64,000 bases of DNA from Flavobacterium sp. UBA7665 (GTDB lineage: Bacteria; Bacteroidota; Bacteroidia; Flavobacteriales; Flavobacteriaceae). Below the pieces are notes generated by a model. It worked only from the letters and a program-made list of their open reading frames with translations, had not been told where the DNA came from and ran no database searches. Positions 12,458 to 27,076 of this stretch are shown piece after piece (positions within the stretch are counted from its first letter, which is position 1; every line of letters begins with the position of its first letter). The DNA lies in NCBI GenBank assembly GCA_002483285.1, contig DLHP01000033.1, positions 22,980-86,979 of the forward strand, read 5' to 3'. The translations under genes and the position numbers were made by a program.

Positions 12458-12537
12458 GCCCGGATGGCGGAATTGGTAGACGCGCTGGTCTCAAACACCT
12501 GTGGGAAACCGTGCCGGTTCGACTCCGGCTCCGGGTA
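12458..12537 (+). tRNA. tRNA-Leu(CAA), CCA not encoded
   Basis: Acceptor GCCCGGA/TCCGGGT+A, D-loop GGAATTGGTAGAC, anticodon loop CTCAAAC, variable arm GG-GAAA-CC, T-arm GCCGG-TTCGACT-CCGGC. Confidence 0.95.
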
Positions 12538-14098
12538 CTTTAACGGAAAAGCTGCCAGAAATGGCGGCTTTTCTTTTTTTATTCTTGTTCCAACCCTCGT
12601 CAACTCTGGTCAAAACCTCAATTACCGTGTTAACCTCAGCGGTTCGACACCCGTCATTTCCAAAAATTAACTTCTCGGTAAATAGCGAACCCGCGAGGAT
12701 TCTTTTTCCATCGTAATCGCTTTCTATAAACAAAGTATCTAAGTTCGCTAACATTTCTAATCCACTATCTATATATTTTCCGATAGATTCGCAACCCGAT
12801 TGGAGAACTTCGATTTCCATATTCACTTGCATCAATTCGCGATTGTATCGCTCAATCATGTTATTATATCTGTCAGCTGCTAAAGTACCGCTCATAAGCA
12901 AATCGTCAGCTTTGTTGAGGTTGTCTTTGAGCAACTGCTGTCTTTCAGACTTAAGAGCGAGAGCTTTCTTTTTATCTCCGTTGATTTGAGCTTCACTATC
13001 TTTCAATATTTCAGAAAACAAGTCTTTTACATTTTTGTTGATTTGTAAATTTACGAGAAGACCTGCAAATCTTTCATGAGCTTCAAAACTCTGAACTCTC
13101 GTCTTGCAGTTTCCACGGCAATGGTAATATGCGTACCTCTTATTTCTTCCTGTTGATAAGCTTCCAGTAATTTGGCGGCCACAGTTTTCGCACGTCAAGA
13201 AATCCCGTAAAGGAAAATCTTCATTTCTATTTGAAGGTTTGAGTCCGTGCCAACGACCTTTTCGAAACACCTCCTGAACTTTGTTGAACGTAGCCAAATC
13301 AATTAACGGCTCATGAATAGCATTGACTACACAGGCGACTTCTTTTTTATACTCAGGTACAATTATTTTCCCCGCGTAGACAATATTCTTGAGCATTTCG
13401 CTAAATGAACTTTTTTTAAGATTCATTCCTTCGACATAAAGCTTTTTTCTTGTAGCTTCAATTGGCTCAACGTTAAGCGCGACTTGCTTAAAAGCTTTTG
13501 TTACAAAGTGCGCCATTGCGTTAGGTACTAATATCGAGCGTTTGCCTTTCGCACTTCCCCTTGTGCTTTTTGCTCCGTCTCTTTGACTCTCATAGCCAAA
13601 TGGTGCGCGACTTGCATAATAACCTTCCTTTTTTGCCTGATATGTTCCGTCCTTAGTTCTGCTTGCAATCTTGGCACGTTCAGCCTCTCCAATTGAAAGG
13701 TAAAAACTTAGGAGGATAACTCTATCCTGATTCTCAGATTCAAGCCATTGTTCAACTGCATTCGGTTCAATGCCGTAACTCTCAAGTTTTTTTATCTCCG
13801 TAAATGCATCGTGAATGTTTCGGGAAAACCTATCCCATTTCGTAAATAAGATTTTATCTACAAGCCGTTTGTTTGTTTTTACGAATGTTTGTAATCGAGA
13901 CCACTCAGGACGTTTGAAATTCTTAGCAGAATGGTCTTCGCGAAAAACGCCGACAACTTCATAATTCATGCGGTCGCAAAAGGCTCGCAGTGTTTCTTCT
14001 TGGTAATCTAAACTATATCCCTGTTGGGCTTGCTCGTCTGTACTTACTCTAACGTATAGTAAGACCTTCTGTAATGCTTCCATTTTCTTCATTTTCAT
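12491..14098 (-). CDS. Large serine recombinase (resolvase + recombinase + Zn-ribbon); C-terminus reads into the antisense tRNA
   Basis: YVRVSTDEQ catalytic Ser, KWDRFSRN, APFGY, CENCG...YYHC. The last 13 aa (GAGVEPARFPTGV) come from the tRNA complement. Confidence 0.93.
   Translation of the reverse strand: MKMKKMEALQKVLLYVRVSTDEQAQQGYSLDYQEETLRAFCDRMNYEVVGVFREDHSAKNFKRPEWSRLQTFVKTNKRLVDKILFTKWDRFSRNIHDAFTEIKKLESYGIEPNAVEQWLESENQDRVILLSFYLSIGEAERAKIASRTKDGTYQAKKEGYYASRAPFGYESQRDGAKSTRGSAKGKRSILVPNAMAHFVTKAFKQVALNVEPIEATRKKLYVEGMNLKKSSFSEMLKNIVYAGKIIVPEYKKEVACVVNAIHEPLIDLATFNKVQEVFRKGRWHGLKPSNRNEDFPLRDFLTCENCGRQITGSLSTGRNKRYAYYHCRGNCKTRVQSFEAHERFAGLLVNLQINKNVKDLFSEILKDSEAQINGDKKKALALKSERQQLLKDNLNKADDLLMSGTLAADRYNNMIERYNRELMQVNMEIEVLQSGCESIGKYIDSGLEMLANLDTLFIESDYDGKRILAGSLFTEKLIFGNDGCRTAEVNTVIEVLTRVDEGWNKNKKRKAAISGSFSVKVPGAGVEPARFPTGV
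12533..12538. other. attL core GGGTAC
   Basis: Overlaps the tRNA 3' end; encodes V-P in the recombinase frame (minus strand). Confidence 0.7.
12546..12580 (+). terminator. Element-supplied terminator for tRNA-Leu, antisense within the recombinase ORF
   Basis: gaaaagctgcca-gaaa-tggcggcttttc plus T7. Confidence 0.8.
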
Positions 14099-14231
14099 TT
14101 TTTTTTATGTTTTTTATGTGACAAATCTTTGCCACTTGGTATAGAACCTCTCGGATTGTTTCAATCTCTTCATCGGAATATCTTATTCCTTCGCGGTTCA
14201 CTATCTTTTTACAATCAGTAATCGACAGCAT
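14049..14231 (-). CDS. 60-aa protein overlapping the recombinase start (possible directionality factor)
   Basis: MLSITDCKKIVNREGIRYSDEEIETIREVLYQVAKI; function inferred from position only. Confidence 0.55.
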   Translation of the reverse strand: MLSITDCKKIVNREGIRYSDEEIETIREVLYQVAKICHIKNIKKNENEENGSITEGLTIR

Positions 14232-14267
14232 TTAATAATCCCGCAGAGATGCTGCGAGAAATTTTTA

Positions 14268-14849
14268 TTAAGTGGTTACTTCAGGATTTAGAAACTTATC
14301 GATTCCAGCTCCCCAGTTTATTTCTTCTTCTAAGATTGCGTGAACTTCGTCGCCTGTAAGCGATACATCTTTACTGTCAAGCAGTTTTCCGCCAAGCTTA
14401 ATTGCCGCTAACCAAACAATACTTTTCTCGAATAGCTTTACCGTCATTTTATGCATTTCTTCAAAAAATGTATAATTGAAGAAATCGCTTTTAGATAGAT
14501 TGTTTGCAAATTCTAATTTTTGACGAACGTTTCCATAATCACTATCAGGAAATATTCCATTAACGGCTTCGCCTAATTTATATGCAATTTCTGGTTTAAC
14601 ATATCCCCATTTAGTTTTTGCCTCTGCGACAAATCCCGCACAAGAGATTAAACACAGTTCTCGCATCTCGTTATGTAAAAGGTCAGAATACCCGTCCTCA
14701 AAATAGATTGGACGGTCACTCATTGGCATGCACATTCCTTCGCCATTAGTCTCAGCAGAGATATATCTCAGACGACGACCCAAAATATGGTATATTACAG
14801 CGTGTCCTGCTTCATGAAAAGCAGCTAACTCAATTTGTTTTAGTTTCAT
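14268..14849 (-). CDS. Stand-alone peptidase M41-like (FtsH protease domain) protein
   Basis: AFHEAGHAVI zinc motif, later CAGFVAE and SD; no ATPase or transmembrane part. Confidence 0.7.
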   Translation of the reverse strand: MKLKQIELAAFHEAGHAVIYHILGRRLRYISAETNGEGMCMPMSDRPIYFEDGYSDLLHNEMRELCLISCAGFVAEAKTKWGYVKPEIAYKLGEAVNGIFPDSDYGNVRQKLEFANNLSKSDFFNYTFFEEMHKMTVKLFEKSIVWLAAIKLGGKLLDSKDVSLTGDEVHAILEEEINWGAGIDKFLNPEVTT

Positions 14850-15235
14850 AATAATATGATTTTAGTTTTAGACATAGGAATTCCTGTCGAAGGAAACTCC
14901 GATTTTTAAATTTTGTATGTGTGGGAATGGCAATTGATGGCCTATCAATTTACCTGCTGTGACTATTCTTTAATTAGTGGCCGCTAAACAGAATAGAAAA
15001 ATCCTGCAAGAGATTTTGTTTCTTAGAATTCTTTCACAAATATATTCATGAATTTTCTTTTTTGCAAGCGGCCTAAAGTGCTGAGGGTCAAGTTTGTCAA
15101 ATATTGTTTTATATTTGGTTTTTTTTCAAATATAAAACAATATTTGGGAAGCTATAATTGATTGTCAATGAGTTATGATTTTTAAATTCGTAAAAAGCCG
15201 AACGTTAATGTTTTGTTAAACTTTAAATTAGCCGT

Positions 15236-15811
15236 CTAAACACTAAGATAAAGATTACTGATTTCGGTTTCACGGATGCCGAGATATATTTTAGTCGTGG
15301 CTACGTTAGTGTGATTAAATAACTGGGAAAGCAAAAGTAAAGCTTGGTCGCTGTATTTGTTTACCTCCCAGACCCGACGACCTAATGTTTTCCGCATGAA
15401 GTGGCTCGAATACTGTCCCTTGATATTATAGAAGTTAAAAATACTCTTTAGTTTGCCGTTCACATATTGGACGGAGAAGGGCTTATCTCCGAAACGATTC
15501 ACAAACATCAAATCACTTTCATTTGCCCCAAGCTGTCCGAACACTCGGCAAAGAACAGTTTGCAATTCTGGGTTTATTGTCACGCGCCTCGTCTTTTTGG
15601 TTTTTTTCTCAACAATGGTAAAATAGTCCTGATTCAAGACTTGATTCCATTTAAGCTGCAAAAGGTCGGAAATACGCAGACCGATATAACTGCCAGTCGC
15701 AATGAGCAACGCAAATTTTAAATCGCCGTCACGCTCCAACTTCAATACTAAGGTTTGCATCTTTTCCCACTCTAAAAAGTCCGAGGTTGTCTTTTGTCCT
15801 TTCAGTGCCAT
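15236..15811 (-). CDS. Small tyrosine recombinase (catalytic domain only)
   Basis: GLRISDLL (R), SHFMRKT (HxxR), HTNVATTKIY (H...Y); 191 aa. Confidence 0.9.
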   Translation of the reverse strand: MALKGQKTTSDFLEWEKMQTLVLKLERDGDLKFALLIATGSYIGLRISDLLQLKWNQVLNQDYFTIVEKKTKKTRRVTINPELQTVLCRVFGQLGANESDLMFVNRFGDKPFSVQYVNGKLKSIFNFYNIKGQYSSHFMRKTLGRRVWEVNKYSDQALLLLSQLFNHTNVATTKIYLGIRETEISNLYLSV

Positions 15812-15917
15812 AATTTCAAGTTTTTACTTTCACTTTTGTTCGATTTAGACCGTTTGTGAAAGCCGTTAATATTCCTCGTTGTGTTAACCCTTGATTTTGT
15901 TGGGTTTACCGTGCTTC

Positions 15918-15941
15918 TTTCACTTCTGATAGAAAGTGAAA
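15918..15941. promoter_or_regulatory. 8-8-8 palindrome beside the tyrosine recombinase promoter (candidate crossover/operator site)
   Basis: tttcactt-ctgataga-aagtgaaa, abutting a minus-strand -7 element (TACATTTG, 15942-15949). Confidence 0.45.
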
Positions 15942-16427
15942 CAAATGTAAATTCCTGGAAATTAACTACCTAACAAAAAATGTTAAATCCAGGACTGGCA
16001 AGGCTTTCCGCAATGTATAATTTGCTTTATCAATATTTGATTGCATTATTTTGCTTTGATAAGTTTACTGGTTGTGGAGGTTTGTTAATTGAGATTAAGT
16101 TTCGACATAATTTGACACCTCCGCCTTATGAAACTAAATTAAATTTTGGTCAATAACTAAATAAATGCACTAACCTAAGGGGTCTTGACCCCAAAGCGAA
16201 TGGAGGTTTAAGTTATAAGGGATTAAAAAAACGCTATTAGCCTTTATTTACTAATTAAATTTAAAATATTTTACTAATTAAAAATTGCAGTTATAGCAAC
16301 GATTTCGAAGATAAAAAAAAGTTAATAAATTTATAAGTGGTTTTTATATAAACCTAACATTATCAAGTGTTTTTCATTTTTTTTCAAAAAAAAACAGATG
16401 TATTAAAATAATATTTATCTTTGTCTC

Positions 16428-16997
16428 ATGAACAACGGAACACTAAATAAATTTCTAATAGAAAGAAAAAAAGAACTTCTTAAAGAATTAGATGCTATTG
16501 ATGTACTTATTGATGCTTCTGATTCTAAAGATGTATATAGTGAAGTTGTAAAATTATTGTCTGAGCGTATTACTTTTACTCCTCAAGGTTCTACTCGTGC
16601 GGAAACTAAAATACTTGAACCTAAGGATGTTGATATTTCTATCGGAATGGCTGCATCACAAGTTAAATTTTATGGAGGTGGGAAAATGATACCAATTGTT
16701 CGTAAAGCAGAGAACACAACATGGAAATATTATCTGGTCGAGGTTATTAAACGATTAGAAGGTAGTTGTAAAACGAATGATATTGCTGAGGTAATGATTT
16801 ATTCAATTAAAGATTTATCTTTTGTTAGAGCGAGGCAGATTGCTGCTGATTTACTCCCTGAATTAGTTAACGATGGACTACTGGAAGTTGAGAAAGGTGG
16901 TTCAAAAAAAGAAGGCCATACGTATATGGTTAAGGGGCATAAATTGAAAATTGTTAGAGATTATATAAAACAAATAAGCACCCAAAAGGATGCTTGA
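16428..16997 (+). CDS. Hypothetical protein: N-terminal coiled coil, C-terminal winged-helix-like region
   Basis: 189 aa AT-rich ORF; LIERKKELLKELDAID; KTNDIAEVM...LPELVNDGLLEVEKGG. Confidence 0.6.
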   Translation: MNNGTLNKFLIERKKELLKELDAIDVLIDASDSKDVYSEVVKLLSERITFTPQGSTRAETKILEPKDVDISIGMAASQVKFYGGGKMIPIVRKAENTTWKYYLVEVIKRLEGSCKTNDIAEVMIYSIKDLSFVRARQIAADLLPELVNDGLLEVEKGGSKKEGHTYMVKGHKLKIVRDYIKQISTQKDA

Positions 16998-17146
16998 TAA
17001 TAAGTTTAAAATGATTGCAGAAGCACTTTATAATGGTAACGGTCTGTGGAGCAAAGCAGATTCCAAACCTACTTTGGGGATTCATTCCAGAAAAGGGTAA
17101 GCGTCCAAAACTTACCAAGCTTTTGCTTTCTTTTTATTCTAATTTT

Positions 17147-17172
17147 GAAGGAGATGTGTCAGCATCTCCTTC
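17147..17172. other. 10-bp perfect hairpin (terminator or sRNA stem)
   Basis: gaaggagatg-tgtcag-catctccttc between convergent transcription units. Confidence 0.5.
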
Positions 17173-17245
17173 TTTTTTCAAAAACAAAGATACGCATTTT
17201 GTTTCAAAATATTTAAAACAGCCTATCTTGGCTTGTTCGATATAA

Positions 17246-17410
17246 TTAATGTTTTCCAATAGTCATTTGCCTCTTGTAACTGGTACTTCCGCAAGTGCAA
17301 CCCGTGAAACTACATTTTTGACAAGTGGTTTTATTACATTTGGCGCATTGCTTGGCGCGGTCGCCGCGGTGTGAGTTACCGCAATTAGGGCAAGAGGAAA
17401 TTTTATCCAT
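17246..17410 (-). CDS. 54-aa Cys-rich zinc-finger microprotein (not in ORF track)
   Basis: MDKISSCPNCGNSHRGDRAKQCAKCNKTTCQKCSFTGCTCGSTSYKRQMTIGKH; three CxxC plus CxC; starts 9 nt after the upstream stop. Confidence 0.7.
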   Translation of the reverse strand: MDKISSCPNCGNSHRGDRAKQCAKCNKTTCQKCSFTGCTCGSTSYKRQMTIGKH

Positions 17411-17419
17411 CGATGAGGT

Positions 17420-17722
17420 TTAGTTGGTGAAGTAAAGAATGATGATGCCGACAAATATGACCATGTGCAAGCCCACGATATAAGTGTATGGCTTTTCGTC
17501 TTTGGTTTTGTTGTCCAACGCTCCTTTATAATCGATTGGGTTGACGGCGTTAAACCTCTGTTCGTAATACGGGAGTATTCCCTTGACAAAGATTAATATA
17601 GATGCGATACATGACAACCATACGCAAAACCAAAACGAGGTATTTGGGATTCTCATAATCCGCTCTGCTATGAAACCGACGGCAAAGGGAAAGATAAGGT
17701 AAAGGATATGTTTTGCGTTCAT
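17420..17722 (-). CDS. Small membrane protein (3 TM)
   Basis: 100 aa with three hydrophobic segments. Confidence 0.7.
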   Translation of the reverse strand: MNAKHILYLIFPFAVGFIAERIMRIPNTSFWFCVWLSCIASILIFVKGILPYYEQRFNAVNPIDYKGALDNKTKDEKPYTYIVGLHMVIFVGIIILYFTN

Positions 17723-17871
17723 TGGTAAGCTGGTTTTACGTTTCCTGTTCGATAGTTCGGATTCATTTTTCTTGCCGTAAGGAGTGCCGCAGATGCGTTA
17801 GCAGCAAATACACGTGTTGCGGTCTTGAACCCGCCGCCCTTTGGGAAAAGGTCAACTATCCATTCTTTCAT
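17719..17871 (-). CDS. 50-aa microprotein (not in ORF track)
   Basis: MKEWIVDLFPKGGGFKTATRVFAANASAALLTARKMNPNYRTGNVKPAYQ; starts 2 nt after the lipoprotein stop, and its TGA overlaps the next ATG (ATGA). Confidence 0.65.
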   Translation of the reverse strand: MKEWIVDLFPKGGGFKTATRVFAANASAALLTARKMNPNYRTGNVKPAYQ

Positions 17872-17873
17872 CT

Positions 17874-18422
17874 TTATAGTTGTGTTATTGTTCCTTGGAA
17901 TGTTTGGACGTTTGCGTTAAGGTTGTCCAATGAGCCACCATTGTAGTAGCGATATATCTTAAATCCAGTCACAACTGCGTTTTCGCCGATGGTGAACTCT
18001 ACATAATCCTGAACTTGTAAGTCTGGAAAATCCAGTCTATACGTGACGCGAGGTTGACCTATGGTCACATAATCCTGATGCTGAAAAAGACCGACCGTAA
18101 AACTGGAAACAACATCAATTAGGCGAATGCCGATGCGCGTGTTTGATTTAACGAATGCCGCGCCCTGAAACCATTCATTAGTCCAATAGCTATTGTTGAA
18201 TTGAGGGGACGGAGTTGTAACATTTTCGTATGGTACACCTTCCATGTTCACGATAGCTTTATCAAGGGTTGCCGAAGTTGGGGACGCGTCAACGATGAGG
18301 TCAAATTGCGAGCCTGTCACACTTGTTTGACTTGTCGGAGGCATAATTGTTTCTTGGTCATTGTCGCCAGAACAGGAAATTAAAAGGGATAATAATGTTA
18401 GGGTAAGTAGCTTTCGTATCAT
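17874..18422 (-). CDS. Lipoprotein, probably surface exposed
   Basis: MIRKLLTLTLLSLLISC lipobox followed by acidic SGDNDQE; -7 element TATATTTG at 18444-18451. Confidence 0.75.
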   Translation of the reverse strand: MIRKLLTLTLLSLLISCSGDNDQETIMPPTSQTSVTGSQFDLIVDASPTSATLDKAIVNMEGVPYENVTTPSPQFNNSYWTNEWFQGAAFVKSNTRIGIRLIDVVSSFTVGLFQHQDYVTIGQPRVTYRLDFPDLQVQDYVEFTIGENAVVTGFKIYRYYNGGSLDNLNANVQTFQGTITQL

Positions 18423-18525
18423 GCTAATTTGTTTGAATATTAGCAAATATACAAAATAAACAGGTCTAAAACAACCTGTTTAATAAGATATATTGAATAC
18501 GTTGGCATTGCTCTAATTTTCTCCT

Positions 18526-18768
18526 ATGGAAATTAAACACGAAAAAGAGTTGGTAGAGCTTGGGAGTAGAATCAAAAAATTGATTGAGGATAAAGGATTA
18601 AAAGTTATGAACGTGGCGCACGATGCCAACCTTGATTCAACCAACTTGCGTAAATATGTCCGTGGTACGCAGGATATGCGTTATAGTACCTTATTAAGGA
18701 TTGCCGCCGCAATCGGCGTTACACCTTCGGAACTTTTGGACGGTCTGGAAATAAAAAAAGAAGGCTAA
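18526..18768 (+). CDS. XRE-family helix-turn-helix regulator
   Basis: LGSRIKKLIEDKGLKVMNVAHDANLDSTNLRKYVRGTQDMRYSTLLRIAAAIGVTPSELL. Confidence 0.9.
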   Translation: MEIKHEKELVELGSRIKKLIEDKGLKVMNVAHDANLDSTNLRKYVRGTQDMRYSTLLRIAAAIGVTPSELLDGLEIKKEG

Positions 18769-18911
18769 CCCTTCTTTTTGAGCAGCTCGACCAATTCTCT
18801 CGCGTCGGCTTTGGAAACCTTCTTCATATCAATTGTAATCGGATATTTTGGTTTAGTGTCTTCTCTTGCCAGCAATCTTTTAAACTGGTCAACGGTTAAT
18901 TTGAGCTTCAT
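18765..18911 (-). CDS. 48-aa basic microprotein convergent with XRE (not in ORF track)
   Basis: MKLKLTVDQFKRLLAREDTKPKYPITIDMKKVSKADARELVELLKKKG; stop overlaps the XRE stop. Confidence 0.55.
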   Translation of the reverse strand: MKLKLTVDQFKRLLAREDTKPKYPITIDMKKVSKADARELVELLKKKG

Positions 18912-19323
18912 AATTCTTTTATCTATAAATATTCTTTAGTTACGGTGAAGACCTAATTTTTTGAGCCAAAATTTTTTAAAAATTTTCTGAGGCCATCCGA
19001 TTGCCACCGACACCATTTGAAAATTGCCTGCCTTATAAGAGCGGAAACGCGAGTTGGGCTAATGGGAAATTCAAGAATTTTCGCCAGCAGGGAGGCAGGG
19101 GATGCTTTTCACTCTAACGGTTTTAGCTTGATGCCAGAAAAATAAAGACTTGCCAAGGGGTTTAGGTTTTAAAGTACGTGCTAAAGGTCTTGTCAAATCA
19201 TCCCCCTTATATCCCTGTGTCGGTTAATTCGAGGCCATTTTTGGATGCTTTCGGAACATTAAAATTACCTCGCTTCGCTTCTTGGATGAGGTTCTACATC
19301 GCCGAGACCATTCTCAAGTACCT

Positions 19324-19557
19324 GCGAGGCAATTTTTAAATGGTAGGCACTCCATCCACACGTTCCCTCATTATAAGAATATATATAAGAATAAAAGAAT
19401 TATAATAGATATATAGTTATCTATAATAAGGCAATCGTCAGATTGCCTCGGTATTGTAAACCACTTCCAACTTACTTAGTTTCTCTTTTCTTCAAATCAC
19501 CTCCAACGGAATCTTTGAAAAATAGAATCGCGAGGCAATTTTTAGATTGCCTCGGTA
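19324..19557. repeat. Putative replication origin: repeated AGGCAAT-N6-ATTGCCT palindromes around an AT-rich core
   Basis: Palindromes at 19429-19448 and 19531-19554, half-site at 19325-19333, nearly pure A/T tract ~19370-19428; upstream of a Rep-like gene. Confidence 0.5.
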
Positions 19558-19749
19558 AGATTTTAAGAAATATCGATAAATCTTTAAAAATCACTTGACT
19601 TTTTAGAATTCGTGCTTATACTTATCAAAACAGTTTTACAAAGGGGTTTGCTGGCGGGTTGCAGTCGCCAGCTTCCGTTGCCCCGAAATCAAAAACGGAA
19701 ATACCAATAATCGCCCGATTGGACGAAAGAGAATAACGGAATATCTAAA

Positions 19750-20535
19750 ATGGAATTCAAATCTTTGAACGACGTGTTCAGCAACAATTTTATTAAATCA
19801 TTACCACACCTTACCAGACTTGACCTAACAGCCAACGAAATCAAAATCATCGAGCTGGTCTTATCCTTTACCCATAAGGGTCTGGATTTCTATATGAACC
19901 ACGCGACCATCGCCGATTATCTGGTCTTAAAGGAGACCAAGACCAAAGCTAAATCAGTGGGCAATATCATCGCGAAGCTTCGTAAGAAGGGCTACATTGA
20001 GACCGTAACCACACACAACTATAACGGAAAGAATGGCGGCTCATCAACAATCATAACTGTTAACGAGGCGTATCTCGAAGAGCAGCTCCATGCCGTATTT
20101 AGCTCTATTGAGGTCTTAGACCAAAATACGCCGCAAGCCTTGTCAACATTGGAGTTAGAACAAGTTAAGATGCAGCTCCCTAATGCGACCCCATCGGGTT
20201 CTGCGGATGCGGTATCTTTCCCGTATAACTACGAGACCAAGAGACAAACCGCAGCCGAATTTGTAGCTGAATTGGATTGTATGGTTGACGAGCCGCGACC
20301 AGTCTTAAACCTTCCAAGTTTGAAAGATTTCGAAGACCCTGACGATGGAGAGCAAGAGGATTTCGGTTACATGGAATTCGAGACTTTAGAAGGCTTCAAA
20401 TCTTTGCTTCAAGCATTGATAGGTCTTGACCAGATGTATCTCAAGAGAGGGACATTACAGCAATTAATTGACAATAGGCTGGGTTGGGATTTAGACAGGA
20501 TGAAAGAGGCGTTTGCATCGACCATACTTAGATAA
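19750..20535 (+). CDS. Winged-helix protein resembling phage/plasmid replication initiators
   Basis: DLTANEIKIIELVLSF...MNHATIADYL...SVGNIIAKLRKKGYIE (HTH_36-like), with an acidic C-terminal region. Confidence 0.6.
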   Translation: MEFKSLNDVFSNNFIKSLPHLTRLDLTANEIKIIELVLSFTHKGLDFYMNHATIADYLVLKETKTKAKSVGNIIAKLRKKGYIETVTTHNYNGKNGGSSTIITVNEAYLEEQLHAVFSSIEVLDQNTPQALSTLELEQVKMQLPNATPSGSADAVSFPYNYETKRQTAAEFVAELDCMVDEPRPVLNLPSLKDFEDPDDGEQEDFGYMEFETLEGFKSLLQALIGLDQMYLKRGTLQQLIDNRLGWDLDRMKEAFASTILR

Positions 20536-20592
20536 ATGAAAATAAAAAATCACTGGCTCAAGGTCAGTTATTATTATTTTTAGTTAAAGATT

Positions 20593-21249
20593 TCAGGCTG
20601 CTATATTTTTTGAAAAATCTAACATTAAATGATAAATTACAACTTCGTTATGCGCAGAGCAGTAAGAATAGTTGAAATCAGTTCTAAGCACTCTGGTGCT
20701 GAGTATTTTTGTTGTATTAGCTGTCCTATACGAATTCTGGAGTAACTGGTTTATTGACCCAATGTTAGCCGCTATATCCAGTGGCTGAACAACAAATCCA
20801 ATCATGCCATTGATTTTATAATGTGTTGAATAAGCTTTAGTAGTAAAACGGCATATCCCATTTTCTATATATTTTGCATTTAAGCCAGTAGTTCCATTTA
20901 AGTTATTGCTATCAAGTCTTTTACATTCTATGATATAATAGGCTTGGGCGTCTAAAAATGTATTTACGGTTTGAATTTTTATATCTGTTCTTCCTACACT
21001 TGCATCCTCTGGAACTTCTCGGTCGAATAAATAGGATATTAATCCCATCTTATTTCGAATTTCATTGTTTTTTAAATACTGTAAAAGGAGGACGTCACGA
21101 ATGGAATTTTCATCGTTTGCTAAAGTTACGTTGTCTTCTAACATAAGATAGTAGCAGCCGACTATTTTTGTAAGAAGGTCTTCAAATTCTGCATTATAGA
21201 AATACTCACTGTACTCGAAGTTGGTTGCGCTTAAATTGTTAAATATCAT
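20593..21249 (-). CDS. PD-(D/E)xK nuclease-like protein
   Basis: GRTDIKI...YYIIECKRL pattern; start overlaps the methyltransferase stop by 11 nt. Confidence 0.65.
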   Translation of the reverse strand: MIFNNLSATNFEYSEYFYNAEFEDLLTKIVGCYYLMLEDNVTLANDENSIRDVLLLQYLKNNEIRNKMGLISYLFDREVPEDASVGRTDIKIQTVNTFLDAQAYYIIECKRLDSNNLNGTTGLNAKYIENGICRFTTKAYSTHYKINGMIGFVVQPLDIAANIGSINQLLQNSYRTANTTKILSTRVLRTDFNYSYCSAHNEVVIYHLMLDFSKNIAA

Positions 21250-24200
21250 GGCGTTTACCTCCTTCCTTTAATATAGCATCAGTAAATTCATTAACATCTA
21301 AATATGCTATTGCCGAATGCCACAATTTCATTTCATTGGGTTTGAAAATATAGAAATAATCTTTTTCAAATCCTCGGATGTCTTTTTGAACAAAAAGTTT
21401 TTCGGTAATTTTTGAAATTCCCATTGCGGCTAAAAAGTTCAAAATGCCTAAGTCATCGGTTTGTTTGTCTATCCACTCTATTTCTTCTTTATAATCATTT
21501 CTTGGAATTATTTTGAAAAACATTCCAATTAATTGATTCGTATGCCATATTTCGATAATGAATTTATTATTACCATTTTCAAGCTTTTTGAAACGAGATT
21601 TAAAAACCTGTGCATACTCAAATAGTAACTCGGACTTGAATGGTATTGGAGAGAAGAGTCTTCTCTTACTTGATGCATCACCCACGATTAGGATTTTAGC
21701 AATGTTTTCACAGTAATTTATTAGTGCATTTTCGGTCTCGTCAATTTCAAATGACTGAATAACGGTTTTGTTAATAGATTTTAATTCTTTTTTTATGATG
21801 GAATTCAATTCGTCAATCTCAATATTATTTATTATGCCCGTATTTTGCTCTTCAAATAACTTTTTTTGAGCAGTTTCAATATTTTCTACATTTGAAGAAA
21901 CATCCATATTTATGTATGGAAGGCTATATTTGTTATAATTTTTCACCCGTTCTCTTTCTACCCCTATCGATGAAAAAATATTTATAGCATAATACATAAA
22001 AAGGTTCGTGCTAAAAATTGACGCAATGTTGTGAAGAACATTCAACTGTTTTTCATCTATTGCTTTTATCGAAGTTATCGAATCCTTAAATAAAACATCC
22101 TTTGTAGAAATAGCACATTTTGCTGTGAGAGTTTTCATATCAATTCCCTCTCGAATTAGAAGCATCGGATGATGGTAAATTCTCACATCTTTTATAATAT
22201 CAATTTTTTCTTTTTCTAAAACTCCAATTTTGTCGTAGTCGATATAGAAAGAAGTGATTGCTTCTGTTTTTAGAAAGGATATACCTTCAATTATACTCGT
22301 ATTTTTAGTTTCTTTTAAAGGGAGCGTTCTACTGTGAAGCCCAGTAGATTCGACAAATAAATCTTTATTTGAAACTATGTTCTTAACAGTTGGAAAATTA
22401 TCTTTCAGCCTTTTTATAAAATTAAAATCGAGATATGACCCATATACTAATACTTTCCAAATCCAATCATGTAGTTTAAAGTTTTGTTGATTAATTAATT
22501 TATAATCGGAACGGTTAATAGTAAAAACTTTAAATAGAGAGAAAAACCTACTTTGTTTTAAAGCAATATGTTCAACGACATTTTTATCAGTATTTTCGCC
22601 GCGCGCGTATCGATAAAATAAAACGGCTGCTGGAGCTACAGCGGGTTGATTCGATTTTTCAAAAACTTCATGCCGTACTGGAGCTAATTCAAAAACTCTA
22701 TCGACGAAATATTCTTCCAACCAATATTGTCTAAATGGACTAAAATTGTCATTGTATCCAAGATTGTAGAGACTACTGCTCCTAATAATTAATGATATGC
22801 GCGTAGTCGCAGAGCAAAAGTCACTAACCCTTAAGACAAATGCTTCTGCAATTTCATTATTATTGATTGCAATCGGATATTTTTTATGCTTTTCTTTTTT
22901 ACTTCGATTCTTTAGATAGGTATTACCTATATCGTCCATTCCATTTCCCTTCCACGGTGGATTTCCCAATATAAATTGAAAGCTGACTTTATTTAAAATA
23001 GAATTGAATGTTGAATTTTCATCAAAAAAATCGGCTTCAAAAAAGTTCGTATTAAAAAGCTCAGGGAAGGTAAATGTTTCAATCTCTTTAGGCTCTAAAT
23101 AATCCAATAACGTAAGGTAAATCGAAAAAATTGCTACTTGGACAGCACTTAGGTCTTTATCAATCCCATATATATTGTCCTGCGCTAAACGCTTTATCGC
23201 TATTTTGAATTCCTCACTGCCGACTTCAATTCCACTATCAGAAATAAACTTCTCAATAACTTTGCGAAGCGTTTCTACAAGGAAAATACCTGAACCACAT
23301 GCGGGGTCTAAAACCTTACAAATGGCAAAGTCAGAAGTGTTTTTTGATAATGCCGAAACTTTTCTGTCACTTTGAAAAATTTCCTTTTCTACAGTTTCTT
23401 TTAAAATATAATCAACTAAAAAAAGAGGAGTATAATATGCTCCCTCTTTTTTTTGATTTTCTTGACCAATAAACATTTCGTAAACATTACTGATAAATTC
23501 AATAGGGATTATCGCAAAGTCATAGAAATCGAACAGCGATAGTTGCCCACTTTCTATGTTTTCGCCATTTAAAAGACGTTTAATGACCTTATATTGGTTT
23601 AAAGTTATTTCATCAAATTCTTCATCAGATAATGGGAAAATGTCGCCTTTAAACCCTTTTTCGTCATTCTCTAAATAATCAAAAAATGATTTGATTTTTT
23701 CAGGATAAGAAAGTAATTCGGAAAACTCATTATTACTCCAAGTTCGAAGCTCGCCATCGAAATTAATTTTTACTTTCCTATCAATAAGATATCTTACAAA
23801 AATTGCTTTTCCAATTATAGCGTTTGCAATTTTAGCAGATAGATTTTGCTCTACTAATTGTTTTCTTGCACTTTGGATGTTTCGTAAAAGATGATAGTCT
23901 ACTCTTTTCTTGTAATTCAGGAGTTCTTGATGTTTTTCCCATGTATTTCCACTTACCAATCGGAAATAGCTAAAATCATCAAGTTTCTCATCTTTTCCCA
24001 ATACCTTTAATAGCTTGGATTTTAAATCGAAATCAAAACCATTGAATATCTCTACAATATTATTCTCTATTATGATTGAAATAGGACACTCGTTGAAATT
24101 CCATATGGCTTTATGTAAAGCGTGCTTATTTGGAGGATTTTCGAAAAATAATATAAGAGGTTTGTTATCAAAACAAAAAAACGCCTTTGGTTTAATATCT

Positions 24201-25072
24201 TTTTCAATCAATCTTTTGACACGGTTTGGAAAGGCAGTTTCATTTTTCCAAGTGTCCTCATGTGTGTAAAAAAGGCCATTATCCTTATTAAGTCCAAGGC
24301 GTGTATATATTTCTTCCAAATTTGCCATCAAATAATCTCCTCTTTGTATTTTATCAAGTTTGAAATTTGAAATTGTGTTATTAATATATTCCTCTGTATA
24401 AAGAATTTTTCCAAAGTGTTTTAATTGCGTCTGATTGTATTCTAATTTGGTTTTGTATAATTGAATTAAATATCTTTTTAATTTATCAGCAATCGCTAAA
24501 TTATACTCGTTTGCATAATATAAAGTGTTAACGACACATAAACTTACATTCGCATTCGGCTTATACAGATAATTTATTTCCCGATTTTGCAGGAAGCTTA
24601 AAAAATCGGTTTTGTAATAAAATTTTTTTTCATTTAAAGAAAAGAGTATTGCGGAAAAATTAAAAAATGCAGTAGAAGGAATAAAGCGGTGCAAATTATC
24701 AACCTCACTATCCAATTCAAGCCTTTTTTGATACTGAACCGCCCATGTTTTCTCTAACGTCCACAAATCGATATTTGTTTCTGAAATATTGATTTTATAA
24801 CCGCCAAAACTATTGCGCCTGACGGATATAGAATTAGGAACTAAAAGTTCAATGTTTATATCATCTCGAATAACAATATCTAAATCCCGAATTTCTTCTT
24901 TTTGCAAAAAGAAATTTCTTATAACTCCACTGAATATGTACACATCATTTACCTCAGCAAGGCGCATCAAAAAAGAATGTACCTCAGCATCTACGTTACG
25001 CTTGATATATTCTAAAAATTCCTCTGAAGAGGAATTGACAATGTCTGCAATATCAGATAATTTTTTGGCCAC
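21239..25072 (-). CDS. Fusion: CCA/poly(A)-polymerase-like nucleotidyltransferase (aa 1-248) + type IIG-like N6-adenine DNA methyltransferase with C-terminal TRD (aa 249-1277)
   Basis: NTase: IFSGVIRNFFL...IRDLDIV, NSFGGYK, IDLW. MTase: GAYYTP, LDPACGSGIFL, GNPPW. GTG start overlaps the dGTPase stop; in-frame ATG at 24328. Confidence 0.8.
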   Translation of the reverse strand: MAKKLSDIADIVNSSSEEFLEYIKRNVDAEVHSFLMRLAEVNDVYIFSGVIRNFFLQKEEIRDLDIVIRDDINIELLVPNSISVRRNSFGGYKINISETNIDLWTLEKTWAVQYQKRLELDSEVDNLHRFIPSTAFFNFSAILFSLNEKKFYYKTDFLSFLQNREINYLYKPNANVSLCVVNTLYYANEYNLAIADKLKRYLIQLYKTKLEYNQTQLKHFGKILYTEEYINNTISNFKLDKIQRGDYLMANLEEIYTRLGLNKDNGLFYTHEDTWKNETAFPNRVKRLIEKDIKPKAFFCFDNKPLILFFENPPNKHALHKAIWNFNECPISIIIENNIVEIFNGFDFDLKSKLLKVLGKDEKLDDFSYFRLVSGNTWEKHQELLNYKKRVDYHLLRNIQSARKQLVEQNLSAKIANAIIGKAIFVRYLIDRKVKINFDGELRTWSNNEFSELLSYPEKIKSFFDYLENDEKGFKGDIFPLSDEEFDEITLNQYKVIKRLLNGENIESGQLSLFDFYDFAIIPIEFISNVYEMFIGQENQKKEGAYYTPLFLVDYILKETVEKEIFQSDRKVSALSKNTSDFAICKVLDPACGSGIFLVETLRKVIEKFISDSGIEVGSEEFKIAIKRLAQDNIYGIDKDLSAVQVAIFSIYLTLLDYLEPKEIETFTFPELFNTNFFEADFFDENSTFNSILNKVSFQFILGNPPWKGNGMDDIGNTYLKNRSKKEKHKKYPIAINNNEIAEAFVLRVSDFCSATTRISLIIRSSSLYNLGYNDNFSPFRQYWLEEYFVDRVFELAPVRHEVFEKSNQPAVAPAAVLFYRYARGENTDKNVVEHIALKQSRFFSLFKVFTINRSDYKLINQQNFKLHDWIWKVLVYGSYLDFNFIKRLKDNFPTVKNIVSNKDLFVESTGLHSRTLPLKETKNTSIIEGISFLKTEAITSFYIDYDKIGVLEKEKIDIIKDVRIYHHPMLLIREGIDMKTLTAKCAISTKDVLFKDSITSIKAIDEKQLNVLHNIASIFSTNLFMYYAINIFSSIGVERERVKNYNKYSLPYINMDVSSNVENIETAQKKLFEEQNTGIINNIEIDELNSIIKKELKSINKTVIQSFEIDETENALINYCENIAKILIVGDASSKRRLFSPIPFKSELLFEYAQVFKSRFKKLENGNNKFIIEIWHTNQLIGMFFKIIPRNDYKEEIEWIDKQTDDLGILNFLAAMGISKITEKLFVQKDIRGFEKDYFYIFKPNEMKLWHSAIAYLDVNEFTDAILKEGGKRHDI

Positions 25073-26525
25073 TTAATTTTTGATAATGGTCTAATGCAAA
25101 TTGGTCAGTCATCCCTGTAATAAAGTCCACAATAATTCTAAGTTTAGAATAATCAGTTAATTTGGTTATATCCTTGTCATTTTCAGGAATTTTATTTTCC
25201 ATTTGAACAGTACGATAAATGCTATTTGAAATCATGCCAATAGCTCTATTACGGTATTTTTCCTCTTCATGAAAAATAAACTCAATATAGTAATCCATAA
25301 GGCCTGTCAATACAGCATGTCCTGTAAGTTCTAAAGAAAGTATTTCTTTTTTAGGGAAAATATGTTTGCCACAAAATATTGAAAGCTTTTTAGTTAATTT
25401 CAGACTGTCGTCTTTTATAAGTTCTTTGTTATACTTTCCTTCATAAATTTCGGGTAAGTGTTTAAAGAAATTTTCAATTGTTATACCGACCAACCTCTCT
25501 ATTAAATAAATTCTTAAATCTACCATTTTAGAGATTTCTCTTCCATAATCGTAAACCTTAATATTAATTCCCTCAAGCGTCTTAAGTAATTCGACATCCA
25601 AGATTTCAGGCTCATTTGATAGTTTTCCATCAGAATCGACTTTAAGCTTTAAGTGTTTTTCTAAATCTTCAAAGCCATACCATCCCTTGTTGAAACCATC
25701 TTCAATATCCATGGTTAAATAACAAATTGAATCCGCCGCTTCCATCAAAAAAGCTAAAGGATGCCGCATGTTTTTTCCTTGACTATCTTTTAGTCCACAT
25801 GCGTCAACGATTTTTTCTAAATATTCTCGTTCAGGCTGAAAAACGCCTCTTTTACTTGTAGACAAGCTTGCCCCATCCACATTATCCGCATTAGGATATT
25901 TTAAGAACGCACCTAATGTAGCATGTGTAAGGTTTAAACCATATGCATTGCTAAGTGCTTGTAACTTCGTTAGAATTCTAAATCCTTGAGCATTGCCATC
26001 ATAATTCTTAAAGTCATCAATTTCTTTTTGACTCATTATAAAAATGCGTTTATTATTTTCCGTAGCCTTTTTTTTAATTTCGGGAGTGATATCTTCCTTC
26101 TTATCTACGACAATTGAATTTTCAAATAATTTTTCAAAATAATTTTGAATTACCGTTTCGCCAAAATGACCAAATGGCGGATTTCCAATGTCATGCACTA
26201 AACAAGCATTTTTTAATATTATCGGAATTGCTCTTAGTAATTGCTCTTTAGTCTGTCCTGTTTCTGAAACAAAAGATGCATCTGCACATACTCTTACACC
26301 TAACGAATATCCTATCGCCATAACCTCCATAGAGTGGGTTAATCTCGAATGTATGTGGTCATCAGTAGTTAAAGGGAATACTTGCGTTTTATCGTGCATT
26401 CTTCGGATAGCGGGACTAAATATTACTCTTCCAAAATCGCTCTCGAAATCATTTCTAATTTCGTCATCAAATGTCTTAGAAGACGGTTTTAATCTGCCTT
26501 TGCTTAAAAATTTATCCCAATTCAT
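25053..26525 (-). CDS. dgt: dGTP triphosphohydrolase (HD family), island-borne
   Basis: RRMHDKTQVFP, HSRLTHSMEV, HDIGNPPFGHFGE, DGNAQGFR, EAADSICY...DIEDG. Confidence 0.93.
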   Translation of the reverse strand: MNWDKFLSKGRLKPSSKTFDDEIRNDFESDFGRVIFSPAIRRMHDKTQVFPLTTDDHIHSRLTHSMEVMAIGYSLGVRVCADASFVSETGQTKEQLLRAIPIILKNACLVHDIGNPPFGHFGETVIQNYFEKLFENSIVVDKKEDITPEIKKKATENNKRIFIMSQKEIDDFKNYDGNAQGFRILTKLQALSNAYGLNLTHATLGAFLKYPNADNVDGASLSTSKRGVFQPEREYLEKIVDACGLKDSQGKNMRHPLAFLMEAADSICYLTMDIEDGFNKGWYGFEDLEKHLKLKVDSDGKLSNEPEILDVELLKTLEGINIKVYDYGREISKMVDLRIYLIERLVGITIENFFKHLPEIYEGKYNKELIKDDSLKLTKKLSIFCGKHIFPKKEILSLELTGHAVLTGLMDYYIEFIFHEEEKYRNRAIGMISNSIYRTVQMENKIPENDKDITKLTDYSKLRIIVDFITGMTDQFALDHYQKLSGQKII

Positions 26526-26600
26526 ATTAGTTTGATTTGATATCAAAATAAGAATTTTAAAAGGATAAATCCTAACATTTTCTTTCGTTGTTTCGTGTTC

Positions 26601-26702
26601 TCAATATTGATGCCGCCTCCCATCTGTTATAGTTTGATATGCTATTGCGAGTCGTTTTAAATCTTCCACAAAACGGTTCGACAATTCAACGTTGTAGGGT
26701 AC
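26601..26702 (-). other. Displaced 3' end of the serine recombinase gene (attP-side tail) plus attR core
   Basis: Reads V-P-YNVELSNRFVEDLKRLAIAYQTITDGRRHQY-stop; the GGGTAC core encodes V-P in the same frame as at attL. Confidence 0.7.
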
Positions 26703-26996
26703 AAAAAGCTCTTCTGAAAAGAAGGGCTTTTTTTTTGGAGCGGAGTCAAACATTTTTTGTTTGACGGCTCCGAGTACAAAAAGCGCTGCTTGAAAGGAAG
26801 GTTTTTTTTGAAGCGGAGTCAAACATTTTTTGTTTGACGGCTCCGGGTACAAAAAGCGCTGCTTGAAAGGAAGGTTTTTTTTGGAGCGGAGTCAAACATT
26901 TTTTGTTTGACGGCTCTTGGTACTGAAAAGCCTCTTCTTTTTGAAGGGGCTTTTTCTTTTTAGGATTGGTGTCAAACATTTTTTGTTTCACGGCTT
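26697..26996 (+). repeat. ~73-bp tandem repeats (about 4 units): palindrome + tRNA-Leu 3' end + terminator-like hairpin
   Basis: gtcaaacattttttgttt(g/c)ac starts at 26745, 26818, 26891, 26971; cggctccgggtac at 26838-26850 is identical to 12526-12538. Confidence 0.9.
26703..26736 (+). terminator. Native tRNA-Leu terminator displaced by the insertion
   Basis: aaaaagctcttc-tgaaaa-gaagggcttttt plus T tract, directly after the attR core. Confidence 0.65.
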
Positions 26997-27076
26997 CGTA
27001 GCATCCACATTAACATTTCCAACTCTAGATGTCTAATGGCGCGTTCAAAATCAGCAACCCTATTATCAGCTAGAAT

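Follow-up and report, generated by a model that had tools for sequence, protein, structure and literature searches.

Introduction

In Clover, CloA is a dTTP-activated dGTPase and CloB is a nucleotidyltransferase (NTase) of the Pol-beta superfamily that makes pppdTpdT (p3diT); p3diT binds CloA and keeps it switched off, and inactivation of CloB is toxic (Yamaguchi et al., bioRxiv 2025, PMC12265719). The system has been reported from Proteobacteria, Bacilli, Clostridia and Myxococcia (PMC12265719). Here we describe a locus in a 64,000-nucleotide stretch of DNA from Flavobacterium sp. UBA7665 (GenBank assembly GCA_002483285.1, contig DLHP01000033.1), referred to below as the window. In it, an open reading frame (ORF) of 1277 amino acids (aa) with a GTG start codon (21239-25072, minus strand) joins an NTase domain, in frame, to a DNA methylase. 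The gene stands between a gene for a Dgt/CloA-like HD dGTPase and one for a putative PD-(D/E)XK nuclease, and we consider it likely that the three form a composite anti-phage operon on an integrative island, consisting of a CloA-like dGTPase, a CloB-like NTase fused to a methylase, and the nuclease.

A fusion of two intact domains

The first 248 residues of the fusion ORF are assigned to a minimal class II NTase domain of the CloB family, made up of head and neck (24329-25072, minus strand), and residues 249-1277 to an MmeI/Eco57I-like gamma-class N6-adenine methyltransferase (MTase; 21239-24328, minus strand). The junction, or linker, lies at about residues 239-250 (KLDKIQRGDYL-M; 24322-24357, minus strand) and includes an in-frame ATG at 24328, which is preceded by AGAGGAG. 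On these points the ORF list and the sequence agree with the initial annotation of the window, which had noted that no stop codon precedes the MTase and that the ATG follows AGAGGAG. Each half of the fusion is intact and full length, and each is normally found in a two-gene cassette of its own (dGTPase plus NTase, and methylase plus nuclease).

The source run is a biofilm metagenome, and the window sequence is present in DNA metagenome runs only. An independent Logan assembly of this run contains a 14.2-kb contig with a word depth of ~60, which is identical to the window over positions 23900-25300, with no gaps or differences. The open junction is therefore not an assembly artefact.

In a two-domain model of 560 aa, each domain has a pLDDT of ~90, while the pLDDT of the linker (residues 240-250) is ~52 and falls below 50 at residues 244-247 (pTM 0.56). 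The model suggests that the linker between the NTase and the methylase is a flexible tether, with which both domains could function.

A relative from a plant metagenome (run X2; ~90% identity) spans the junction and corresponds to window positions 24135-24814. It differs by two pairs of compensating 1-nucleotide indels (24282/24292 and 24301/24304), and in each pair the frame is regained within a few codons.

Recurrence and age of the fusion

Fused relatives lay outside the best 120 matches of a homologue search made with the N-terminus only, and were brought out by a search with the full-length protein. The latter identified four more proteins of 1275-1280 aa, with 64-67% identity at 100% coverage (P0122-P0125), which together with the window protein are referred to as lineage 1. 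In the loci of these four, the HD gene, the fusion gene and the nuclease gene follow each other in this order, in surroundings that differ and are rich in mobile elements. A second set is represented by loci L071 (Chryseobacterium sp. Leaf405) and L075, whose proteins are 37-39% identical to the window protein in both halves. A search with the L071 protein identified 12 clusters of 1249-1271 aa with 55-97% identity to it (P0241-P0252; lineage 2), including those of the isolates Chryseobacterium arthrosphaerae and Elizabethkingia anophelis. The fusion is thus represented by a total of 17 protein clusters in two lineages. An HD gene upstream and a nuclease gene downstream were present in all seven fused loci inspected (the window, L006, L007/L008, L012, L013, L071 and L075).

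No bootstrap replicate of the neighbour-joining (NJ) trees united the two fused sets (methylase, 0/100; NTase, 0/200), and unfused relatives lie between them; in the NTase tree each fused lineage forms a clade (179/200 and 197/200). The linker of ~11 residues is kept within lineage 1, and in lineage 2 it is absent or shorter, by ~12 residues. Since the trees separate the two sets and the junctions differ, we infer that these two families became fused independently on at least two occasions. The two cassettes were found adjacent but unfused in none of 59 methylase loci and in none of ~72 NTase loci.

The fusion has been retained through 35-60% sequence divergence. Synonymous sites are saturated at this protein divergence, and constraint was gauged by the retention of invariant residues. 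All 17 fused proteins keep the three catalytic Asp residues of the NTase, and of the 561 residue cells that are invariant in the family, 524 are preserved. The 1277-aa ORF is thus a genuine fusion that has been maintained in evolution, and not the product of a stop-codon loss. Of the two explanations that the initial annotation had offered, the true fusion is the one upheld, by 17 clusters in two independent lineages and by the agreement of the reads. The other, a recent stop-codon loss, is contradicted, as is an assembly artefact, by the fused relatives and the identical 60x Logan contig.

Fold, motifs and family of the N-terminal domain

An AlphaFold model of residues 1-248, built on 52 homologues, has a pLDDT of 89.4 and a pTM of 0.85. 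When it was compared with the PDB using Foldseek, the top 38 matches were all CCA-, CC- or A-adding enzymes or poly(A) polymerase (best E 1.4e-8). The query-normalised TM-scores were 0.5-0.62, at E values of 1e-8 to 1e-4; only head and neck were aligned, and the alignments spanned ~190-245 columns of class II targets of 340-520 aa. By its predicted fold, the domain can be confidently assigned to the class II (CCA/poly(A)-polymerase-like) Pol-beta NTases, in keeping with what had been supposed from its signature. Neither Pfam (even at E values up to 10) nor NCBIfam nor PADLOC returned anything for residues 1-248 alone. Searches of PDB sequences with phmmer and with the 52-sequence profile gave chance matches only (a Tet-like dioxygenase at 0.017 and Hdr subunit B at 1.2). 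As the sequence libraries are blank for this region, the identity of the domain was established by fold comparison. The Pfam family PolyA_pol (PF01743) is weakly matched by 7/52 family members.

In class II enzymes, the RRD of motif B recognises the ribose 2'-OH and the EDxxR of motif D templates the base. The motifs present in the fusion protein are FSGVIRNFFL...RDLDIVI, NIDLW and TAFFNFSA. Invariant across the 52 family members are S48, G49, R52, D63, D65, D102, T134, F136, F137, N138 and F139. The CCA/poly(A)-polymerase-like signature recognised in the initial annotation, with its third acidic residue in IDLW, is therefore present, and the catalytic residues G49, D63, D65 and D102 are among the invariant positions. 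Equally, RRD is absent, as had been proposed: the RRD part of motif B is replaced in the family by [ST][AT]FFN[FW][SD]A, and the invariant segment T134-A-F-F-N-F-S presumably occupies the position of the class II sequence RRDFTINA. Neither RRD nor EDxxR occurs among the invariant columns of the 52-member alignment. The NTase domain is not a CCA-adding enzyme, and the loss of the motif that recognises the ribose 2'-OH would fit an enzyme polymerising dNTPs.

The family comprises 297 clusters at 90% identity and ~1425 at 50% identity. Its members are nearly all free-standing proteins of 230-260 aa, so that the question raised at the outset, whether the NTase is usually separate or fused, is answered by mostly free-standing NTases and 17 fused clusters. 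Its distribution is patchy: most members come from Bacteroidota, with a few from Ignavibacteria and Balneola, one from a spirochaete and one from an acidobacterium. From this patchy spread, the dGTPase-NTase pair described below appears to behave as an accessory and not a core function. Phage-encoded homologues of the NTase were looked for and none was found.

Several members of the NTase family carry other C-terminal additions. In L054 (6736-7854; P0368, Pedobacter borealis) there is a tail of ~130 aa with a D...EVK motif resembling PD-(D/E)XK, and a tail of ~180 aa of no known family is present in at least five clusters (P0007, P0030, P0035, P0078 and P0079). P0073 shows a weak Ogg-HhH match (E 0.077), and P0009 is a further member listed with a C-terminal addition.

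Partnership of the NTase with a dGTPase

The first gene of the operon (25053-26546, minus strand) encodes a Dgt/CloA-like HD dGTPase of 497 aa, which matches NCBIfam TIGR01353 dGTP_triPase with 319 bits and the PADLOC dGTPase model with 219 bits. In the window, its stop codon overlaps the GTG start of the fusion ORF by 20 nucleotides. This arrangement is widespread: among species-representative genomes from several phyla (loci L014-L077 among them), an HD gene lies directly upstream of the NTase gene in ~65 of 75 loci, the overlap is exactly 20 or 17 nucleotides, and the start codon of the NTase gene at these paired loci is almost always GTG, an arrangement in keeping with translational coupling of the two genes. 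In L001-L005, for example, the NTase gene follows a gene for an HD/HD_assoc protein of ~490 aa with a 20-nucleotide overlap. The overlap sequence itself (25053-25072; AAGTGGCCAAAAAATTATCTGA) is nearly identical in the window and L006.

The two activities are also found in single chains. NTase-HD fusions are encoded in L082 (7962-10190) and in P0388 and P0417, with HD parts that are 42-50% identical to the HD protein of the window. These three and P0395 are NTase-dGTPase chains in reverse order, of 713-743 aa, from Bacteroidales, and provide a Rosetta-stone link. Judged by gene order, the NTase is an obligate partner of the upstream dGTPase gene and not an orphan. The initial annotation had treated it as an activity on its own and missed the dGTPase partnership; a new orphan NTase it is not.

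Homology to Clover

In comparisons with PDB sequences, the HD protein matches SeCloA (9p8s-v) over its full length with an E value of ~3e-54, E. coli Dgt (4x9e) with 1e-52 and the stand-alone defensive enzyme SpdGTPase (9p8w) with 1e-24. The corresponding scores are 188 bits for SeCloA, 182 for E. coli Dgt and 90 for SpdGTPase, with 197 for 2pgs and 181 for the L. blandensis protein. By these scores the HD protein is clearly of the Dgt/CloA type and not of the SpdGTPase type, while CloA and housekeeping Dgt are not told apart. In the alignment to 9p8t, its segments RLTHS, LVHDIGNPPFGHFGE and MEAADSI match H69, H117/D118, H126/E129 and D242 of SeCloA. Of the four p3diT-pocket arginines of SeCloA, R29, R38 and R314 align to Arg and R34 to Ser; E. 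coli Dgt has this pattern too, and it therefore has no diagnostic value.

The comparison with CloB was made by proxy, using NTases that adjoin CloA homologues on plasmids and that were located with the N-terminus of SeCloA. In Phaeobacter piscinae, a CloA homologue 56% identical to SeCloA is followed by a gene for a hypothetical protein of 259 aa. An hhalign comparison of the window NTase family with this protein gave a probability of 98.1% and an E value of 7.7e-14, all signature motifs being common to both, and tblastn with the window NTase alone reached the Phaeobacter gene at 8e-6. The same tblastn search matched, at 2e-12, a gene of 232 aa located just after a CloA homologue on a Bacillus cereus plasmid. 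Residues D63, D65 and D102 fit the CloB active-site pattern [DE]h[DE]...h[DE]h. On the strength of these alignments, the dGTPase-NTase pair of the window is homologous to Clover CloA and CloB. The B. cereus pair (L171, NZ_CP117423.1) adjoins a Hachiman HamA gene.

The initial annotation had also proposed that an NTase without the template motif would make a different product, such as a nucleotidylated tRNA or DNA or an oligonucleotide signal. Of these, the oligonucleotide signal would fit best, because the family is homologous to CloB, the maker of pppdTpdT. Nucleotidylation of tRNA or DNA is unlikely, because the domain consists of head and neck only, without the tRNA-binding body and tail.

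The methylase half and its partner nuclease

The PADLOC model REase_MTase_IIG PDLC03603 aligns over its positions 1-1013 (of 1016) to residues 249-1271 of the fusion protein, with 1346 bits, which places the start of the known methylase family exactly at the internal Met. More than 500 homologues of 1000-1043 aa start at the same position. Pfam identified N6_Mtase (1e-12) and MmeI_Mtase (2e-8) in this half, and Eco57I is among the precomputed matches. The layout comprises an N-terminal alpha/beta domain, a helical spacer, an MTase core (DPACGSG, NPPW) and a C-terminal target-recognition region. By its domain content, the segment of residues 249-1277 is a complete MmeI/Eco57I-like (Type IIG) methylase.

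The N-terminal alpha/beta domain of this half (23250-24328; residues 249 to ~610) corresponds in position to the nuclease domain of MmeI. Across 26 homologues it showed no invariant D, E or K, and Foldseek on the 560-aa two-domain model returned NTase matches only and none for this domain. Possibly it is a nuclease that has degenerated, or else it docks the 218-aa protein encoded downstream.

This downstream gene (20593-21249, minus strand) encodes a putative PD-(D/E)XK partner nuclease of 218 aa, and its first 11 nucleotides coincide with the last 11 of the fusion ORF. A gene for a protein of ~220 aa directly follows the methylase gene in 57/59 metagenome loci with enough downstream sequence, and a ~220-aa nuclease gene lies directly downstream in all fused loci inspected. 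In 17 homologues of the nuclease, E78, D89 and E108-C-K110 are invariant, and Pfam PDDEXK_9 is matched by 7 of these 17 (best E 4e-4); a profile of the 218-aa protein found nothing significant among PDB sequences. The protein is probably the restriction subunit of the methylase. With a separate nuclease downstream and no invariant acidic residue or Lys in the methylase's own N-terminal domain, cleavage probably occurs in trans.

In L011, the surroundings of the closest unfused methylase cassette resemble a conjugative transposon (RteC, DUF4134), and the cassette is followed by a gene for an NTase-HEPN protein.

Internal initiation at the junction

The initial annotation had considered that the ORF might be made as two isoforms, of 1277 and 1029 aa. 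The AGAGGAG motif is not conserved, L006 having AAAGGCGAT instead, and initiation led by a Shine-Dalgarno (SD) sequence is unusual in Bacteroidota. The Met at the junction is replaced by Thr in two of the five lineage-1 proteins (P0123 and P0124), and nine of the 12 lineage-2 proteins have no Met there. Five codons before the junction, L007 and L013 have a GTG that is in frame. For L071 and L075, the stretch from -22 to +12 codons offers a single start-type codon, a TTG that comes ~11-12 codons after the junction; because these loci, too, carry the nuclease gene downstream, their fused polypeptide would have to be a competent methylase. The part of the proposal that relied on the SD-like motif and the Met does not hold across relatives, while a start codon near the junction in lineage 1 makes a second product possible in that lineage.

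The annotations of near-identical proteins differ in this respect. In the same genome of C. arthrosphaerae the protein is given as 1266 aa (WP_228433345.1; P0242) and as 1024 aa from an internal Met (AYZ14905.1; P0515), and in E. anophelis as 1249 aa (P0247) and as 1017 and 997 aa (P0510, P0512).

The integrative island

The operon is carried by a low-GC integrative island of ~14.5 kb (12491-27000), located between prs/L25 and nuoN, with a GC content of 31-40% compared to ~46% in the flanks. A syntenic island is present in L006. The island encodes a large serine recombinase (12491-14098; Pfam Resolvase and Recombinase), a short integrase ORF of 191 aa that may be truncated (15236-15811; Pfam Phage_integrase) and a Rep-like ORF of 261 aa with weak DnaD_N/Rep3 matches (19750-20535). 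Pfam Pribosyltran and Proton_antipo_M were also matched in the same scan. Several further ORFs between 12491 and 20535 have no family match.

A 73-bp tandem repeat (26697-26931; 3.2 copies, 90% match) is situated in the interval that separates the dGTPase gene start from nuoN, and overlaps small repetitive ORFs at 26601-26991 on the minus strand. This region could be the island boundary, an att site or a promoter region.

Discussion

If the operon works as its homologues suggest, the dGTPase would deplete dGTP during infection, and the NTase domain would constitutively make a short 5'-triphosphorylated deoxy-oligonucleotide, p3diT or a relative, that holds the dGTPase off; by the same homology to Clover, loss of the NTase would be toxic. 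The methylase half, by homology to MmeI-type restriction-modification (R-M) systems, would mark host DNA and shield it from the partner nuclease. The fused polypeptide would thereby carry both antidotes, its gene being flanked by those of two potentially toxic effectors, and the fusion would lock together the expression, stoichiometry and inheritance of the two, yielding a doubly addictive, co-mobilised unit. In our preferred reading, this coupling of expression, stoichiometry and inheritance is the most economical reason for the recurrence and retention of the fusion. As a second part of this reading, the brake on the dGTPase may depend on the integrity of the R-M enzyme, in which case phage attack on the methylase complex, by inhibition or destruction, would bring about dGTP depletion as a second line of defence.

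Several observations weigh against this reading. Fused forms are rare: they make up 17 clusters, compared to several hundred clusters of unfused methylases and ~1400 of NTases (at 50% identity), so that two defence cassettes that happened to be neighbours may have been joined by an accident that was then tolerated. The case for two independent events is drawn from NJ trees, and in the methylase tree lineage 2 does not form a clean clade (36/100). CloA is no closer to the HD protein than housekeeping Dgt proteins are (4x9e, 2pgs, 7tu0), and R34 of SeCloA corresponds to Ser, as it does in E. coli Dgt. Assignment to Clover draws on the gene partnership and on NTase homology by proxy, and not on SeCloB itself. 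In lineage 1, a separate methylase isoform starting from the ATG or a nearby GTG is possible.

A neutral origin would account for part of these observations: an R-M cassette could have landed directly behind a dGTPase-NTase pair within a defence island, and a small deletion could have removed the stop codon and the spacer, leaving two independent domains in a fusion without a function of its own, with the methylase perhaps also made separately from an internal ATG or GTG. Such an origin would fit a linker predicted to be disordered with the domain orientation undefined (pTM 0.56), the rarity of fused forms relative to the unfused families, the ATG or GTG that all lineage-1 members keep within five codons of the junction, the genome annotations that start the methylase at the internal Met, and the tolerance of the NTase for several other C-terminal additions. 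However, the same two families were fused at least two times, with different junctions, and no adjacent but unfused intermediate was seen in ~130 informative loci; no catalytic residue has been lost although the fusions have diverged deeply, and the lineage-2 loci whose DNA was examined have no ATG or GTG near the junction. We regard a neutral fusion as a serious, though less likely, alternative. That the junction reflects a sequencing or assembly error, or a stop codon lost recently in a single genome, would agree with the finding that most relatives of each half are separate genes. The probability of this is negligible in view of the identical 60x independent assembly and of the 16 other fused clusters, which include isolate genomes of Chryseobacterium and Elizabethkingia; moreover, the two genes lie apart from each other in unfused relatives. 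Artefact and private stop-codon loss were accordingly ruled out on the basis of the 17 fused clusters and the Logan assembly.

The NTase might alternatively serve the R-M enzyme and not the dGTPase, by extending DNA ends made by the nuclease or by nucleotidylating DNA, tRNA or protein. Its fold is that of template-independent class II polymerases, loss of RRD could relax sugar selectivity, and in L054 an NTase is fused to the PD-(D/E)XK-like tail. Against these points, the domain does not stand out within its family, which is almost always paired with a dGTPase and in some members even fused to one, the dGTPase gene is kept upstream in every fused locus, the domain has no body and tail with which to hold a polynucleotide primer, and the characterised homologue makes a dinucleotide signal; a role of this kind is very improbable. 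A further proposal builds on the preferred reading. It is conceivable, albeit unlikely, that the fusion is a selected guard circuit, evolved at least twice, in which anti-restriction or loss of the island stops inhibitor synthesis and unleashes dGTP depletion. Its triggers would be DNA mimics, methylase inhibitors, proteolysis or island loss.

The locus reveals a large, sequence-divergent Bacteroidota branch of Clover-like pairs with a fixed gene-overlap architecture of its own. That the same two families have been fused repeatedly is a Rosetta-stone signal, suggestive of functional cross-talk of restriction-modification with immunity by nucleotide depletion; a guard circuit, if true, would hard-wire the two together. 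At present the fusions of E. anophelis and C. arthrosphaerae are annotated as 'N-6 DNA methylase' or shortened to the internal Met, and, as the NTase domain has no Pfam or PADLOC model, such systems are invisible to current defence-finding pipelines.

Comparison with known systems

The N-terminal domain has the head-and-neck fold of class II tRNA NTases and bacterial poly(A) polymerases (PF01743), together with their motif A (GS-x13-DxD, with a third Asp). It differs from them in the absence of body, tail and RRD, and in its size of 230-260 aa compared to ~370-470 aa.

Like the MmeI/Eco57I enzymes of Type IIG/IIL, the methylase half combines an alpha/beta domain, a spacer, a gamma-class N6-adenine MTase and a target-recognition domain in one chain of ~1000 aa. 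Unlike them, it has an N-terminal domain without invariant catalytic residues, a separate PD-(D/E)XK protein of ~220 aa encoded almost always downstream and, in the fusions, an extra NTase of 248 aa at the N-terminus.

For the guard circuit, the closest parallel in concept is PrrC-EcoprrI, in which a Type Ic R-M enzyme reportedly holds an anticodon nuclease in a latent state until a phage anti-restriction peptide sets it free. In both cases, the brake on a second effector, of the abortive or depletion type, would be physically attached to an R-M enzyme. In contrast to the present locus, the association of PrrC is non-covalent, its effector is a tRNA nuclease and no nucleotide signal is involved, and the analogy is put forward purely as a hypothesis.

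The likeness to Clover lies in the two-gene arrangement of a Dgt-like HD dNTPase with a Pol-beta NTase of ~230-260 aa, in the conservation of all HD catalytic residues and in the Asp pair near residue 60 of the NTase (D63/D65 here, D61/D63 in SeCloB). The pairs described here differ in forming a subfamily of Bacteroidota, a phylum that is not named in the Clover report (the word 'Bacteroid' is absent from PMC12265719). They also have a fixed overlap of 17 or 20 nucleotides and a GTG start, whereas the Clover pairs of Proteobacteria and Bacillus are separated by a gap of 8-12 nucleotides. Finally, the NTase of the window is fused to an R-M methylase, while the word 'fused' does not occur in PMC12265719.

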